64,000 bases of DNA, taken from Candidatus Bathyarchaeota archaeon (GTDB lineage: Archaea > Thermoproteota > Bathyarchaeia > Bathyarchaeales > Bathycorpusculaceae). Under the pieces are notes generated by a model. The model worked only from the letters and a program-made list of their open reading frames with translations, ran no database searches and had not been told where the DNA came from. Positions 5,701 through 12,406 of this stretch are shown here, piece by piece. Location of the stretch: positions 32,001 through 96,000 of the forward strand of contig CAVYXJ010000009.1 in assembly GCA_963772455.1 (NCBI GenBank), given 5' to 3'. Every line of letters begins with the position of its first letter. The first letter of the stretch is position 1. The translations under genes were made by a program, and so were the position numbers.

Positions 5701-8308
5701 TTATTGTTTCTTTTTGATTGCAAATAAGATTGCTGCGCCAACTATTGCGATTGCGACGATGATTGCTATTACACCTGCAATTACGTATGTTGTCAATGTA
5801 TTGGTTGTATTATCAAGTGAGATAGGTTCTGGTGTTGCTATTATTGTTGGGGCATCGCTTACTGTTGCATAGGTGGTTGCCCATGAGTTTCCATAGGATT
5901 GGTCACCTGCAAAGGTTGCTGTAATTTTGTATTGTCCCGATATTGTTGGGTTCCATGCATAGGCAAAGTTACCTTTCTCGTCGCTGGTCACCGTGTTGAG
6001 GTGGAAGAAGTTGTTGTTTGGGTCAATCACATCAATTGATACTGGGACTCCTGTGACTGTTACGTTGTGGTAGAATCCATCAATTGGTCGTTGCATATGT
6101 AGAAACTCCATGTAGGTCGACATTGATTCTTTGGATACGCATGCTGCACCTGTTTGGGCTGGTGACTGGTCGAGGATAGTGCCTGATATTATTGCTGTTG
6201 TTCCTGCAGTAATAGCTGTTTGTGGGGCAGAAATTGTTGTTTGACTTTGTCCTACTCCAAATACGTACATGTTGCCATCGTATCTGTTATCATATGTTAG
6301 GTAGCCATCTGCAACTGCACCTGCTGATCCTCCGCCTGAAATATCCCATAAGTATTCGCCTGTAGTCGCGTTAAGTGCCCAAAGTCTCCAGCCTCTTGTG
6401 AGCGGCTCTGTTGGTGAATGTTCGCCGTTTGCATAATAGAGTACACCATCTGCGATTTGGGGTGAGTTACTAAAGAGCGTCATGGAAGGGTATGTTGCGG
6501 ATTCAAATGGAATGGCTGGTGTTGAGTAGTGCCAAACGATCTTGCCGGTGTTCCAGTCTAGTGCATAGAAACCTGCATATGAGAAGTCATAGATTAAGCC
6601 GCCGTAAGAAGCGATTGTGTAGGCTCCAAAATCTCCCCATGGGTATTCTTCGCCACCTACTTCACCGGGTTTAGCAGTTTGCCAAAGTAGTTGTCCTGTC
6701 TGTAGATTCCAACAGTCCCACCATCCACCGAGTACGCGTACGGTAACTTTTCCATGGTCTGCACAGAGGCCTGTGGGGAAGAAGATGTCGTTTGAGGTAA
6801 CGTTCCAAAGCAGTTGCCCTGTGGTTAAACTTGCAGCGGTCAAATACTGTCCAAGTGCATGACCTGCGCCTGCTGGTGTTATTGTAGCTGAAGTGACTGC
6901 AATGTTTGACTCAAAGTCTACTGAACCTAGACTGCTAAATGGGTAAGTTACGTTGCTTATTATTCTGGTGTTGAAGTCTGTGCTTGTTCCGGTTGTTGTC
7001 CAGTTTATGAGTTTATAACGGTTTGCACCTGCGGTTGCTCCAAGGTCTTGCACTGTTAATGCATAGGGGTCTTTGTACATGGTGCCTGAGCTTATTGGCA
7101 GCGTGATGTTTAAGGTGACTGCGCCGCTCCATGGATTGTATTTTATCATCCTTGATGATCCGATGTACACGAGCGAGTATGTGCCTGTTCCCTGACCAGT
7201 CTGTTCTGCGCCTGGTACTGAAGATGCGACTTGGTTAAACGTAATCACGGTCGGTGGCTGAGTTATGCCTGTTTGCTCCCAATAGACCTGCCCCGTGCGT
7301 ATGTCGTAGCATTGCCAGACGTTTACTGTCTGTGAATATGTTACACCGTTTATTGTTGTTGTCATTGGTTTGCTGATTGTTTGGTATGCTCTGCCTTGAA
7401 AGATTATAGTGGGAGTGCCTGCATAGGCGCCTTCGCCTGGGCCCACTGAACGATAGCCAAATTGTCCACCTGCAATGCCTGCTAATGCACCTTGTCTCAT
7501 CCAAGCAATGTGTGAAGTTTTAGGACCCTCCACGTATGGGGTGAATTTATAGTTGCTTGCGTATGCGTTGGTGTTTGCTGGCCACCCTTCACCGCCACCT
7601 ACTCCTGTGTAAGGAAAGTGTCCGCCTATGACCCACCATTCACGGTTTTCGATGGGTATGGGGCGGGTCCAGTAGTCTGTTGGAAGCTGCGCTGCAGGAT
7701 ATGAGTAGACTGGTTCTTGTTGTACTGTCAATGAAACTTCTGGACTGGTTGAAGCTTGGTACCAGGCTGATTGAAAGCTTGCTGCTCCGCCAAATCCCAT
7801 TCCACCTGTGCTGGTTCCTGGTGGGAGGTCTGCTTGAGTAGCATAGTATTTGCCATTGTAGTACCATCCTGCTTGTAAGTAATTGCCGGCAAAGTTGAAT
7901 TTGAATTTGTATATTCCTAATTGGTCTACACCATATTGAATCCATGCTGTGGCGTCTCCTTGATAGGAGTTTATTGGTCCGATGGTTTCAGTTGTATTGT
8001 CTGGTTTTGTTACTGTTATAGTATAACCTGAGAAGAAGCGTTGGTAAGCTATTGGTGGTTCAAGCCATATGTTGATTAGAACTGATTGACCTTGGCCAAT
8101 CGGGTTGGGACTGATACTGATGAATGCGGTTGTTGGGATTGTAACATTTGGGGTTGTGCCTTGGGGAGGTGCGGTTGGCCACGGTGTTAGTTGTGGGGCT
8201 CCTATTTGTTCTACTTCTGCATTCGTTGAAAAAGATACTAGATGCGATTGAAATCAGCATTATTACAAGAGACAATATTGCCAAGATTTTATTTCTAGTT
8301 GATTGCAT
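5701..8308 (-). CDS. PQQ-binding-like beta-propeller surface protein, paralog 1 (one frameshift near 8230)
   Basis: Signal peptide in ORF 8308-8060; after a shift at the A5 run near 8230 one frame reads SPNPIGQGQ...YWTRPI... into ORF 7800-5701; TGxxxW propeller repeats; C-terminal TM and KKKQ. Confidence 0.85.
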
Positions 8309-8490
8309 TTTTATTTCCTCATATATTGTTGGAAAAAAGAGCCAGATCTAAAGATAGAATACTCTCTCTCTCCATAACGCCGATTATTGGTTTTAATTGT
8401 TAATAAAAGGTATTGGAAAGTGACCACTGACGACAAAAAAAATCAAGAAAAATTGGCAGACAAAAGCAAATAGATTAGCTGAGATGTTTT

Positions 8491-8511
8491 AGAAAAAAGA
8501 AAAAAGAGAAA
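8491..8511 (-). terminator. T-tract terminator downstream of the Lys-rich micro-ORF
   Basis: Minus strand TTTCTCTTTTTTCTTTTTTCT about 22 nt after the stop. Confidence 0.5.
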
Positions 8512-8533
8512 TGAATGTGCCTACGCCGAGGTC

Positions 8534-8590
8534 TTATTTTTTCTTTGCTGGTGCTTTCTTTACTTCTTTTTTAGCTGGTTTTTTTGCCAT
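8534..8590 (-). CDS. 18-aa lysine-rich micropeptide MAKKPAKKEVKKAPAKKK (histone-tail/H1-like)
   Basis: Hand translation ATG(8590) to TAA(8534); GAGGT SD 8 nt upstream; TTATAAATA box at 8638-8630; downstream T-tract; below the ORF-track size cutoff. Confidence 0.7.
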   Translation of the reverse strand: MAKKPAKKEVKKAPAKKK

Positions 8591-8627
8591 TTGAAATAAC
8601 CTCGGGATTCAATGTATGAGAGCTATT

Positions 8628-8682
8628 GGTATTTATAATTTGCTGAATTGAGGAGAAAACAGATAACAAAGCTTAATACTTA
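8628..8682. promoter_or_regulatory. Back-to-back TATA boxes for the micropeptide (-) and the histone (+)
   Basis: Minus TTATAAATA (8638-8630); plus AAAGCTTAATA (8668-8678) with a purine-rich BRE-like stretch. Confidence 0.55.
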
Positions 8683-8717
8683 CTTGAAAAGAAAAAGAGG
8701 CTGTGGATGAAGTCGCT

Positions 8718-8939
8718 ATGAACGAATTAGAAATTTCTGTTGCTCCGATGCATAGAATATGCAAAAAAGCGGGAGCAAAAAGGGTAAGTGAAGAAGGAGC
8801 AAAAGAACTTGGAAAAATTCTCGAAGGGATTGGTGTAAAGATTGCAAAAGAAGCACTGGATTACGCGACATACGCTAAAAGAAAGACAATTAAAGTGGAA
8901 GATATCCAAATCGCTGTAAGAAAAGTTATGGAAAAATAG
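8718..8939 (+). CDS. Archaeal histone (HMf family), variant with Y49 and K51
   Basis: APMHRICKKAGAKRVS...AKRKTIKVEDI aligns colinearly with HMfB (R10, G16, R19, R52, T54, D59 conserved); ATG 8718 preferred over GTG 8703. Confidence 0.95.
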   Translation: MNELEISVAPMHRICKKAGAKRVSEEGAKELGKILEGIGVKIAKEALDYATYAKRKTIKVEDIQIAVRKVMEK

Positions 8940-9057
8940 CAACCTAATTTCTTATTTAAGAATAGAAAAATATGAGCGTATTTCAAATCTCCTGTTGTGT
9001 CTTATTGCTTACAGAAAAAGTATGCTTATTAATTTCCAATTAACCTCTTGAAGAATA

Positions 9058-9715
9058 ATGAACGAATTCTCTCTTCATTCAGAAATAAAAAAAGCTTACT
9101 CGCTTCCTGGAGATCAATTTGAGGTTAAATTAGACAACTACATCGTCGATCTCTTGAGGGAAAATTTAGTAATCGAAGTTCAGACAAAGAATTTTTCAGC
9201 CCTAAAAGAAAAACTTCAAGTGCTTACTAAAAAACACCAGGTGAGGTTAGTCTATCCTCTGCCTGAAAGAAAGTTGATAACACATGTTACAAAAGATCAC
9301 AAAGTCCTAAATACTCGTAAATCCCCCAAAAAAGGAAAACTAACTGATCTATTTCGTGAGTTAGTCATGATTCCGCAAATGATCAGTGTAGAGAACTTTT
9401 CTTTAGAAGTTTTACTCATCGATGAAGAAGAGATAAGGTGCGACGATGGAAAAGGAAGTTGGAGAAGAAGAGGAGTCAGTATCGAAGACCGGAAGCTTCT
9501 GAAAATAAACAATCGAATTCTATTCCAAACCAAAGATGACTATCTCAAAATACTTCCTGAAAGCCTAAATGAAGTTTTCACCAATAGAGAATTAGCGAAA
9601 TCAGCAAAGATTTCAGTGAAGACTGCAAGGCAAATAACTTATTGTTTAAGAAAAAGCGGGATTGTTCAGATTAGCTGGAAAAAAAGGTAGAGAAATAATT
9701 TTTCAGTATGTATAG
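9058..9715 (+). CDS. PD-(D/E)XK nuclease-fold protein with C-terminal HTH (probable frameshift near 9672)
   Basis: SLHxxIK...YIVDLLR..LVIEVQT motif; FTNRELAK...ARQITYCL HTH; alternative frame continues AGKKGREIIFQYV*. Confidence 0.65.
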
Positions 9716-9802
9716 AAACAAATCGCCTTAGAGAAGAAGAAAAATTCTTCTATCTGTAAACTAAGATTTCCAATAAAATTTCCTCGAAATACAAAAAAGA
9801 GA

Positions 9803-12406
9803 TTATTTATTTTTGAATATTAGTTGACCGTTTTTTTCTTCTACGATTATAGTTGTGTCCTTACTGATTTTTTCAGATAATATCATTTTTGAAAGTTCAT
9901 TCAAGATGTCTTTTTGAATTACTCGTTTTATTGGTCTGGCACCGAATTGGGGATCAAATCCAACGTTGGCAATGTGGTCGATAGCTTTCTTGGTGGCTGA
10001 TAGTTTAATGTTGTTTTTCTCCAGCATCTGCTCAACTTTCTTTAGTTGAAGCTCCACAATCTTTCGAACTTCCTCTTGAGTGAGGGGTTGAAACATTATT
10101 ATTTCGTCGACGCGGTTGAGAAATTCAGGTCTAATGCTCTTCTTGAGCAACTCAAAGACCTGCTCTTTAGTTTGGATTAAAATTTTCTCTCGGTTTTCAG
10201 AGTTAATTTTCTCAAGGTTCTCTTGGATGATGTGTGATCCTATGTTTGAAGTCATAATGATTATGGTGTTCTTGAAATCGACTGTTCGACCTTTATTGTC
10301 GGTAAGTCGACCGTCATCAAGAACTTGCAATAGAATGTTGAAAACGTCTGGGTGTGCTTTCTCGATTTCATCTAGTAAAACCACAGAGTAAGGTTTGCGT
10401 CTCACAGCTTCAGTTAATTGTCCGCTTTCTTCATAGCCAACATAGCCAGGCGGAGCACCTACCAGCCTGGAAACAGTATGCCTTTCCTGATACTCCGACA
10501 TATCGATCCGAATCATATTATTCTCGTTGTTGAAGAGAAACTCTGCTAATGCCTTGGCTAATTCAGTTTTTCCAACTCCAGTTGTACCCAAGAAAATAAA
10601 AGACCCAATTGGACGCTTAGGATCCTGCAAACCAGCACGACTCCGACGTAACGCATCCGAAACAGCTCGGATCGCCTCCTCTTGCCCAACAACTCTCATG
10701 TGAAGCTCACTTTCTATGTTTAGCAGCTTTTGCTTCTCGGTCTGTAACATACGACTAACAGGTATTCCAGTCCAGCTCGAGACAACTTCAGCAATTTCCT
10801 CTGCACCCACCTCTTCGTTTACCAACGCTGAATCCTTCTGCAACTCGGTTAATTTCTTCTTCAAACTCTCAATAGCTTTAGTCGCTTCGGGAATACCACC
10901 ATATCGAATCTCGGCAACCCGCCCAAGATTACCCCGACGGTTAGCATTCTCTTCTTCAAACTTTAACTTTTCAATCTCATTCTTCTTAGCTTGAATCTGA
11001 TCAACAATTTCCTTTTCCGAGTGCCACTTTGCACGCAAACTATTTCTTTGTTCGGTTAAATTTGCTATTTCCTCATTTAGCGACTTGAGCTTAACATCAT
11101 TCTTTTCATGTTTGATGGCTTCACGTTCAATCTCTAATTGCCGAATCTTCCGATCTACATCTTCAAGTTCCTGAGGTTGAGAATTGATTTCAAGTTCCAA
11201 CTTGGCAGCTGCTTCATCAATTAAATCAATTGCTTTATCGGGTAAGAAACGCTCTGTAATGTACCGCTGAGATAACTCAACAGCGGCAATTATTGCATCA
11301 TCCTTAATTCGAACATGATGAAACACTTCATAACGCTCTTTTAGTCCCCGCAGAATCGAGATAGCATCTAAAGCATCAGGCTCATTAACCATAACAGGCT
11401 GAAAACGCCTCTCCAAAGCCTTGTCTTTCTCAAAATACTTCTGATACTCCTTCAAAGTAGTCGCGCCAATAGCTCGCAACTCACCTCGCGCTAACGCTGG
11501 CTTAAGAATATTAGCAGCATCCATCGCACCCTCGCCTCCACCTGCCCCAACAAGCGTATGAATCTCATCGATGAAAATCAAGATTTCACCTTCCGCCCCA
11601 ACAACTTCCTTAATTACACTTTTAAGACGCTCCTCGAACTCCCCCTTGTACTTAGCACCTGCAATCAAAGCACCCATATCAAGAGAAAAAATCTGTTTTG
11701 ACTTCAAATTCTCAGGAACATCACCGTTGACTATGCGCTGCGCAAGACCTTCAGCAATAGCGGTTTTACCTACACCTGGCTCTCCGATCAAGAGAGGATT
11801 ATTCTTTGTCCTTCTAGATAAAATCTGAAGAACCCGCCTAATCTCAGCATCACGACCAATAACCGGATCTAATTTTCCAGCCTGAGCCCTACTATTTAGA
11901 TTAACAGCAAACTTGTTAAGAGCATTGTAAGTTTCCTCTGCAGTGGGCGAATTAACAGACGCTCCCTTACGCAACTGATCAATTGCAGACTTGAGGTCTT
12001 TTTCGTTAACTCCACTGCGTTTTAGCAACCGCGAAGCTGAATCATCTATCGACAATATTGCCAGCAATAACTGCTCCACAGAAACAAACTCATCTTTGGC
12101 AGCAGAAGCCAATTCTTGAGCTTTACGAAGAACCTTATTAGAATTCGAAGAAAGATACGGCTCACCTCCACTAACTTTAGGCAAATCATCAATTTCCCTA
12201 TCTAGCAAAGCAGAGAAAGAACTAAAATTAACCCCAAGTTTTCCAAACAAAAAAGGAACTACATTCTCATCAACAAGCAAGATTCCCTTCAACAAATGAA
12301 GCGGTTCAACTGCTTGATTGCCCCTTGCTGAGGCAATTTCTACTGCCTTTTGAATAGCTTCTTGAGATTTAACCGTAAAATTATCCAGACTCATACCACT
12401 CACCAA
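9803..12406 (-). CDS. clpB: ATP-dependent chaperone ClpB
   Basis: Clp N-domain; [10 protein letters not shown]; Walker A GEPGVGKT and GTTGVGKT; coiled-coil M domain; GAPPGYVGY; FGARP. Confidence 0.97.

Follow-up and report, generated by a model that had tools for sequence, protein, structure and literature searches.

The DNA considered here, referred to as the window, is a stretch of 64,000 nucleotides (nt) from the genome of a Candidatus Bathyarchaeota archaeon (assembly GCA_963772455.1, contig CAVYXJ010000009.1, positions 32,001–96,000). Between positions 8491 and 8939, a histone gene on the plus strand and a lysine-rich micro-gene on the minus strand lie head-to-head, with their TATA-like boxes 34 bp and their start codons 127 nt apart (Table 1). 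A first-pass annotation, made from the letters alone, had described the open reading frame (ORF) of the micro-gene as a full expression cassette, with a TATA box, a GAGGT Shine–Dalgarno (SD) sequence 8 nt before the ATG and a downstream T-tract, whose promoter lies about 30 bp from that of a tail-less archaeal histone. It had further proposed that the peptide is a histone tail encoded in trans or a minimal linker histone. Translation of 8590..8534 on the minus strand returned the peptide MAKKPAKKEVKKAPAKKK, in which nine of the 18 residues are lysine, every named feature of the cassette was recovered in the sequence, and the distance between the boxes agrees with the one given. The functional part of the proposal fared less well and is weighed below.

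Table 1. Features of the divergent micro-gene and histone locus (window coordinates; UTR, untranslated region; BRE, B recognition element).
Feature	Coordinates	Strand	Basis and remarks
Micro-ORF, 18 codons + TAA, encoding MAKKPAKKEVKKAPAKKK	8590..8534	minus	translation; 'type B', histone-linked paralogue
Start ATG; stop TAA	8590..8588; 8536..8534	minus	sequence
Promoter block TTCAGCAAATTATAAATAC, BRE-like + TATA	8629..8647	minus	sequence; heads all 55 aligned cassettes
TATA proper TTATAAATA	8638..8630	minus	39 nt upstream of micro-ORF ATG
Shine–Dalgarno GAGGT	8603..8599	minus	8 nt before ATG, within conserved CCCGAGGTT
Oligo-T tract TTCTCTTTTTTCTTTTTTCT, likely archaeal terminator	about 8491..8512	minus	sequence; alignments of 32 and 53 copies
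CCTCGG in 3' UTR, complementary to SD-holding CCGAGG	8526..8531	minus	possible 5'/3' pairing or anti-SD mimic; function unsupported
Histone gene, 73 residues from ATG 8718 (78 from alternative GTG 8703)	8718..8939	plus	PF00808, tail-less, fast-evolving paralogue
Conserved upstream region of histone gene with TATA-like TTAATAC (8673–8679)	8661..8680	plus	38 nt before histone ATG

The signals around the micro-ORF are those expected of a gene. The promoter block follows a consensus, TTTAGCAAATTTTAAATAC, at the head of 55 of 55 aligned cassettes from several genera, and in the same alignment one base of the GAGG of the SD is invariant while the other three are at least 90% conserved. The 16S rRNA of the window's genome ends in GGATCACCTCCT, to which GAGGT is complementary, and an SD core of at least 4 nt precedes 350 of the 1385 long ORFs of this genome (25%) as compared to 4.4% of random positions. 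GAGGT can therefore plausibly serve as a ribosome-binding site here. At the other end of the cassette, conservation between genomes stops just past the T tract. A gene of 57 nt is far below the length that gene callers usually report. A census of the own genome (2.45 Mb, 39.7% G+C) gave 19 ORFs of 14–40 codons with at least 40% lysine, of which only two also have an SD-like and a TATA-like motif, namely the window micro-ORF and a paralogue on contig C13. Two K-rich ORFs of 30 codons were also noted in this genome, at C7:454215 (−) and C12:46712 (+), starting MAKKPTKAEEDKKK and MPKKEKPLTKKERDEK, respectively; the second has an SD-like motif.

The identity of the neighbouring gene as an archaeal histone found support in the PF00808 (CBFD_NFYB_HMF) profile, which matched 8718–8939 with E 6.7e-12 and 45.9 bits (cut-off 21.4); the whole-genome profile search also recovered this histone, with 45.4 bits. 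Another histone gene of the genome lies at C10:12393–12572. The protein is tail-less, as had been annotated. The best 120 of its 767 homologues (search limited to 40–128 residues) are 73–79 residues long, except one of 99, and none of these 120, the longest one included, carries a K-rich extension. A fused tail-plus-histone ('Rosetta-stone') form was likewise found nowhere among the best 120 of the 767. Alignment of 32 copies of the element shows conservation of TTTGTTATCT (minus strand) upstream of the histone gene, and the TATA-like region on the histone side probably acts as a promoter.

Conservation of the cassette within the genus is extensive. Its 171 nt (8480–8650) matched 51 of 120 genomes at E ≤ 0.001; the match was full-length in 46 (E ≤ 2.3e-11, 71–93% identity) and weak and partial in five others. 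These genomes, as all sets used here, are sampled draws and not complete collections. The coding test was performed with 32 distinct copies, taken from 40 loci whose match covered at least 100 nt. All 32 copies keep the frame open, and 20 start with ATG and 12 with GTG. Variation is absent from the 18 first and second positions of the lysine codons, whereas four of the nine third positions vary, by A/G only; the chance of such a split is ~0.007 by hand count, a value which is only indicative as the copies are related. All four third bases were seen at Ala2 (GCN) and at Pro14 (CCN), and replacements are limited to residues 6, 9, 10 and 15 (A/V/E/T). The 48 parsed genus copies have 17, 18 or 19 codons; they differ in length only by whole codons, and no indel breaks the frame. 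The frame is also open in 48 of 49 places in the genus, one variant being unparsed by the pattern, and in 48 of 50 copies of an older locus of the same family (see below). The first-pass annotation was thus right to point to a gene beyond the sight of gene callers, and both the conserved ORF and the synonymous variation by which it wanted the gene to be checked are there. From these comparisons, we conclude that the micro-ORF is best read as a protein-coding micro-gene under purifying selection for lysine, and one whose transcription and translation very probably proceed independently. Among the contigs of three metatranscriptomes of the same study, 0 records matched window 8300–9000 at 80% likeness, which is uninformative either way.

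A different reading of the conserved element is that it makes no protein at all and represents a bidirectional promoter and terminator or a small non-coding RNA, the lysine richness being a by-product of AAG/AAA-rich DNA. Indeed, AT-rich intergenic DNA readily reads as lysine, according to PMC10919886, and the non-coding parts flanking the ORF are equally conserved. Such an element, however, would have to keep the frame open in 32/32, 48/49 and 48/50 copies, swap its starts only between ATG and GTG, retain TAA in 96 of 98 distinct ORFs, accept indels only as whole codons and fix the first two bases of the lysine codons. Moreover, Lys-rich ORFs of the own genome with both SD and TATA number only two, and neither an Rfam family nor a consensus structure was found. 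We regard the absence of a protein product as most improbable.

The composition of the peptides was analysed with 98 distinct ORFs, which encode 62 distinct peptides of 1012 residues in total. The starts are GTG in 78 and ATG in 20 ORFs, the stop is TAA in all except two, and the lysine codons are AAA (480) and AAG (408). Among the distinct peptides, lysine accounts for 55.7% (564 of 1012 residues), alanine for 22.7%, proline for 8.2%, valine for 5.0% and glutamate for 4.7%, while arginine, histidine and aromatic residues are absent (0 of 1012). Lysine becomes arginine by a single transition, a type of change that third positions tolerate freely. Since arginine is wholly absent though only one transition away, selection appears to act for lysine itself, beyond mere positive charge. 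It is the composition and the KK spacing that are conserved across the family, and the spacer residues are variable. Among relatives of 20–60 residues, no Pfam match at E ≤ 0.1 (the 23-residue relative included) and no significant NCBIfam match was obtained; the best NCBIfam match of the 20- and 23-residue relatives was Rv3852_fam with E 1.2 and 9.7 bits, where the cut-off is 100.

The window micro-gene belongs to a wider family of lysine-only micro-genes, which we define by a TTTAGCAAAT-TAAATA promoter block and GAGG 5–12 nt before GTG or ATG, followed by the ORF, TAA and a T tract, the ORF having 13–23 codons with about 55% lysine and no arginine. The window cassette aligns with the other cassettes of the family, and its match to R1, a sequence-only model of 55 cassettes, has 61.6 bits and E 2.0e-16, partly by construction as it is one of the 55 model sequences. 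The second copy of the own genome lies outside the window, at C13:26337–26387 (+) (L253:2138–2188), starts with GTG and encodes VAKAPKKDDKKAKKKK. It has the promoter and SD architecture of the window copy and a divergent ECF-S-like neighbour, and its cassette also aligns with the others. By its DNA, the C13 cassette matched 96 of 301 genomes of the taxonomic family, which include 62 of 88 in the window's genus (g1) and represent 15 of 70 genera overall. Evidently, the C13-type copy is the more widespread paralogue. A back-translated pattern with at most one mismatch gave matches in 62 of 401 genomes of the order, while the reversed control gave 13 matches in 12 genomes. Real copies were found by this pattern in genera g1 (32/88), g21 (15/23) and g31; other hits (L074–L076, L079, L116–L119 and L122) were dismissed as false since they are unrelated or lie inside longer ORFs.

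With E ≤ 0.01 as the limit, the model R1 had matches in 32 of the 151 Bathyarchaeia genomes sampled. Family f1 contributed strong ones (E ≤ 4e-19), from 8 of its 15 further genomes sampled; one match in family f6 had E 4.2e-11 (VPKKAKGKKKKVEKK), and those elsewhere were weak. Twelve R1 hits were inspected, 11 of them outside f1, and in seven a K-rich ORF of 13–25 codons was found with promoter, SD or T-tract motifs around it. The micro-gene family is thus clear in two families of the order, f1 and f6, with weaker candidates in other Bathyarchaeia families. The histone adjacency expected by the first-pass annotation did not extend as far, being lineage-specific. Across the phylum, R1 matched 17 of 151 sampled genomes, and short K-rich ORFs were present in 4–5 of 13 further hits inspected; beyond Bathyarchaeia these hits are only a lead. 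Three weak ones in other classes of the phylum (L329, L333 and L338, E about 1e-3) hold the short K-rich ORFs VSKKAKAKPKKKAAKKKS, MSCSKPVKKPVKKATKKKKKK and MKKEKKEEKKEEKKK, and in two of them a TATA-like box close upstream suggests leaderless transcripts. These are hints that such micro-genes may exist outside the class. A 21-codon ORF, MAKKPAKKKEKKKKEETKEEW, was also seen behind a strong GGAGGGGAGGTGA motif in family f7 of the order (L073/L220). Its beginning is rich in lysine, its end is acidic and contains an aromatic residue, and it is distinct from the lysine-only family. A virus or plasmid origin was considered and rejected, as the pattern scan of viral contigs gave two hits, both of which were N-termini of unrelated ORFs (61 and 40 residues) with no histone nearby.

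The surroundings of the older locus are of a different kind. In g21, the promoter and SD of the cassette are the same, the start codon is GTG, and the peptides, such as VAKKPAKKEEKKAAPAAKKK and VAKKPAKKEVKKAPAKKAPVKKK, have 17–23 residues. The micro-gene there sits between a divergent ECF-S-like membrane protein gene (PF12822, 30.3 bits, marginally below the 30.7 cut-off) and a co-directional gene for a ferritin-like protein of 326 residues (PF00210, E 3.6e-37); a histone is absent within 3 kb. Of the older-locus copies, 48 of 50 were parsed, and their peptides are of 16–17 residues in 47 cases (e.g., VAKAAKGKKKKAAKKK) and of 13 residues in one. In 7 of 9 loci inspected, a conserved TATA stands ~40 nt ahead of the start of the ferritin-like gene, which is therefore a separate transcription unit. 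From the distribution of the family and the context of its loci, it follows that the window gene is a lineage-specific, histone-linked paralogue of an older family.

These neighbours bring up the question whether the element acts in cis on the gene beside it, as a Lys-rich leader peptide sensing Lys-tRNA or polyamines or as a small RNA with an SD masked by the complementary 3' UTR, the neighbour being a ferritin-like or histone gene. The micro-gene lies upstream of the ferritin-like gene on the same strand in 19 of 20 loci of other genera and half of its codons are for lysine, but it ends in its own oligo-T tract, the ferritin-like gene has the TATA just mentioned, and both paralogues persist in g1 where no ferritin-like gene is found downstream (0 of 30 loci). 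The histone-linked copy is moreover divergent from its neighbour in 39 of 43 cases. At the RNA level, the region around the SD (CCGAGGT, 8599–8606, minus strand) complements ACCTCGG directly after the stop codon, and the latter resembles the 16S 3' end; this complement is mostly lost in g21. Each of the six CCGAGG/CCTCGG pairs forms in 46–50 of 53 copies (83.6% of cells paired), but the pairing is not above that of shuffles (500 of 500 reached 83.6%), and no pair shows a double change. RNAalifold with the 53 copies gave −0.38 kcal/mol and four pairs with no compensatory change, and the z-score for the single-sequence fold of the micro-gene region was −0.01, so that neither covariation nor excess stability speaks for a regulatory RNA; the downstream flanks also differ between genomes. 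Covariance models of Rfam 15 had 0 matches in window 7800–9800 at E ≤ 1. Structured RNA was accordingly rejected as the main explanation on the absence of an Rfam family, the fold z-score and the lack of covariation, and a leader peptide or attenuator on the T tract, the divergent neighbour and the lack of conserved structure. Taken together, control of the neighbour in cis is very unlikely.

The linkage to histone genes was investigated at 50 places fetched in the genus, 49 of which hold the micro-gene element. A histone is found within 700 nt in 43 of the 49. It is divergent with a spacing constant to 5 nt (124–128 nt from ATG to ATG) in 32 places, divergent at 299–694 nt in seven, and in tandem upstream of the micro-gene in four; in six places no histone is found in the fetched flank, and two of these lie 94–121 nt from a contig end. 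As the histone stays within 700 nt across these differing arrangements, the linkage is real and has outlasted local rearrangements. At least two PF00808 hits are present in 43 of 46 genus genomes with the micro-gene as compared to 8 of 74 without it. The mean pairwise identity is 78.5% for the tightly linked histones (n = 30), 86.1% for the loose or tandem ones (n = 10) and 93.0% for the unlinked ones (n = 22), although three 'unlinked' rows were so labelled only because the motif missed variant micro-ORFs. The tree of these histones is poorly resolved; it groups 21 of the 22 unlinked ones on short branches (support 93/75), together with six loosely linked ones. By these comparisons, the micro-gene usually co-occurs with an extra, faster-evolving histone. 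Several genus genomes have more than one micro-gene/histone pair, with four copies in G048 and two each in G019 and G076. For G048, a strain mixture and a true duplication are indistinguishable, owing to 6% contamination and 120 contigs.

Based on these results, we propose that the window micro-gene encodes a nucleic-acid-binding polycation microprotein, that it is the histone-linked paralogue of the lysine-only family and that it is probably co-expressed with the histone variant. We put the probability of this reading as a whole at about 0.5. Each member of the family has a BRE/TATA promoter and an SD of its own, with a GTG or ATG start, a TAA stop and an oligo-T terminator. The product would be an unstructured polycation of net charge about +8, and, because of this charge and the expected disorder, it should bind polyanions. 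Judged by composition, non-sequence-specific electrostatic binding to nucleic acid is most likely, and the peptide could serve DNA as a counter-ion or condense it, much as the C-terminal domain of linker histones, protamines or polyamines do. In this genus, a paralogue would have been co-opted to the second, faster-evolving histone variant. The micro-gene and the histone gene have a divergent control region of ~125 bp in common, which makes their co-expression, and a joint action of their products on the same chromatin, probable. The comparisons show the conservation, the coding signature, the family relationship and the linkage and co-occurrence with a histone paralogue; transcription, translation, nucleic-acid binding, co-regulation with the histone and any effect on chromatin are inferred. 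For the window paralogue, a chromatin role is favoured by the fixed spacing of 124–128 nt, the co-occurrence and the lysine-only composition.

Several observations weigh against this proposal. The promoter and the UTRs are conserved as strongly as the ORF, and therefore part of the conservation is not protein-level. Four genus copies have no histone despite 1.5–3 kb of flank on each side, and of the eight multi-histone genomes free of the micro-gene, six were inspected, none of which has a K-rich micro-ORF within 1.5 kb of the fetched histone loci. The older locus is not near a histone and is followed by a ferritin-like gene in 19 of 20 loci of other genera; the g21 histone is on the same contig as the micro-gene in 2 of 5 genomes checked, 140–180 kb off, and on another contig in three. 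Related genomes are not independent, so that the co-occurrence with a second histone could be one shared gain in a subclade and the linkage could trace back to very few events. Charge-driven DNA binding is deduced from the composition, by which RNA, ribosomes, polyphosphate or acidic proteins would be no less possible as targets. A role at the ribosome or on RNA also keeps some probability, given that the family occurs away from histones and that the length at the older locus hardly varies. The partnership with a histone, as put forward in the first-pass annotation, thus stands for 43 of 49 copies in the genus, where the synteny is strong, and does not hold for the family at large.

Lysine is abundant in histone tails and in H1, and its modification serves to regulate both. 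In the most specific form of the chromatin role, the peptide would be a diffusible 'histone tail' or minimal linker histone, with a promoter back-to-back with that of a dedicated fast-evolving variant, and would tune the compaction of that variant's hypernucleosomes by binding their DNA or an acidic surface. The linkage and the co-occurrence with a second histone are in line with this idea of the first-pass annotation; the wider family living apart from histones is not, nor is the fact that the best 120 of the 767 homologues include no fused form, and we consider it possible but doubtful. The peptide resembles the N-terminal tails of eukaryotic core histones and of tailed archaeal histones in being Lys-rich and positive, and it is here genetically associated with a histone-fold protein. 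Tailed archaeal histones are rare, with examples in Heimdallarchaeota LC_3, Huberarchaea and Bathyarchaeota B23; such histones, one from Bathyarchaeota among them, are described in PMC6136690. Histone tails, otherwise rare in archaea, may arise easily from AT-rich upstream DNA, as PMC10919886 has it. Unlike these tails, the peptide is the product of a separate gene on the opposite strand, has no Arg/Gly pattern and belongs to a family also found far from histone genes. It forms no covalent extension and is accordingly not a histone tail in the strict sense, its ORF being a separate one that has a promoter and a terminator to itself. If the trans-tail reading were true, lysine without arginine would let acetylation or methylation switch the charge, fold and tail would be separate polypeptides of a two-gene archaeal chromatin module, and the wider family would represent a general class of polycations of the archaeal nucleoid that has so far escaped notice.

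The C-terminal domain of H1 and the H1-like proteins have very little arginine, are presumed to be disordered and bind DNA and other polyanions by charge. With the C-terminal domain of linker histone H1, Hc1/Hc2 of Chlamydia and AlgP of Pseudomonas, the micro-gene peptide shares its character as a K/A/P-rich polycation with AKK/PAKK-type repeats. Hc2 is given as 165–237 residues of lysine-rich pentamers in PMC2848022, and AlgP is named in the title of PMC9239181. The peptide differs from these in being 10 to 15 times shorter (13–23 residues), of near-fixed length and encoded by a stand-alone gene, and in having neither a globular domain nor detectable homology. As to membership in H1/H5, 18 residues are too short for the winged-helix domain, and the 20- and 23-residue relatives have no profile match. 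By analogy with protamines and polyamines, the peptide is small and of high charge density and may serve in charge neutralisation and condensation. Protamines are Arg-rich, unlike this family which is without arginine, and polyamines are metabolites whereas the peptide is a gene product.

The smallest ribosomal proteins are often missed by gene callers, are expected to be highly expressed, and are Arg-rich and conserved in sequence. As the micro-gene peptides fall in the size class of eL41, bTHX and similar proteins and are as strongly basic, they might instead be ribosome- or RNA-associated microproteins which fill an rRNA pocket or coat RNA, with the adjacency to the histone being incidental. 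The strong consensus promoter and SD, the clear occurrence in f1 and f6 with candidates elsewhere in the class, and the lack of linkage between the older locus and chromatin genes would agree with this, and the near-fixed length at the older locus, 16 codons in 47 of 48 parsed copies, suits a core housekeeping role better than a variable low-complexity coat of DNA. The conservation, however, is mainly compositional, with 62 distinct peptides and variable spacer residues, so that composition and KK spacing are retained and not sequence. Arginine and aromatic residues are missing (0 of 1012), whereas known tiny ribosomal proteins are Arg-rich, and there is no ribosomal-gene linkage in the loci inspected. 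The eL41 profile (PF05162) had no match in the genome at E ≤ 1, but this test is powerless as 0 of 14 control genomes reached the cut-off. On balance, a ribosomal or RNA-coating role is unlikely.

Lysine-rich tails and look-alikes were also encountered outside the family. A pattern scan of public genome contigs gave at least 119 stretches. Among the matches listed, 24 short ones have more than 40 open in-frame codons upstream and 61 looked stand-alone, 16 of the latter being from Bathyarchaeia. About 44 stand-alone-looking bacterial ORFs of AKK repeats (L124–L241, 15–63 codons) are among the matches listed, mostly from Planctomycetota (e.g., VAKKAAKKAAKKAATAKPAAKKAAKKAAKKK) and otherwise from Phycisphaerae and Bdellovibrionaceae. 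Exact-sequence look-up of eight short bacterial matches with an ATG start found none in a collection of 15 billion proteins, and five of the eight are tails of longer frames. The Verrucomicrobial matches (L147, L148, L164, L173, L179, L182, L190–L192, L195 and others) were rejected as micro-genes, being C-terminal tails of frames of about 900–1000 codons. The N-terminus of these frames presumably resembles pyruvate phosphate dikinase and, if this identity is true, the frames would represent a metabolic enzyme with a Lys-rich tail. In family f11 of the order, an Alba protein (PF01918, E 6e-19; L120:2425–2817 (−) and L121) has a K/E/P-rich N-terminal extension of ~43 residues starting MAEKPAKKPEKK; a sister family thus has a chromatin protein with a fused Lys-rich tail.

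Further genes near the locus in the window are those of a 699-residue PQQ-like beta-propeller protein with a hydrophobic C-terminal stretch (5701–7800, minus strand; PF13360, E 2.2e-10), a 210-residue ORF without a Pfam match (9058–9690, plus strand) and a ClpB-type AAA+ chaperone (9803–12406, minus strand; PF07724, E 2.7e-73). None of the three is kept beside the micro-gene in other genomes.

Archaeal chromatin is usually framed as tail-less histones, Alba and a few other proteins, with tails and linker histones as eukaryotic inventions having rare archaeal precedents (PMC10919886 and PMC6136690). No description of free-standing lysine-only micro-genes was found in the literature, though the supplements of small-ORF catalogues may list them. 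In the case of the GMSC small-protein catalogue, the words lysine, histone and Bathyarchae are absent from the main text (PMC11364881), and its supplements could list such ORFs. Conserved lysine-only peptides of 13–23 residues, which are probably highly expressed, would add to this picture a chromatin component that is invisible to standard annotation. The histone-linked paralogue bears on whether a 'tail' function can act in trans and, with that, on the origin of tails and linker histones. With RNA or the ribosome as the target, the family would still be a clean case of a micro-gene with deep conservation in a class of archaea that is uncultured yet abundant worldwide.

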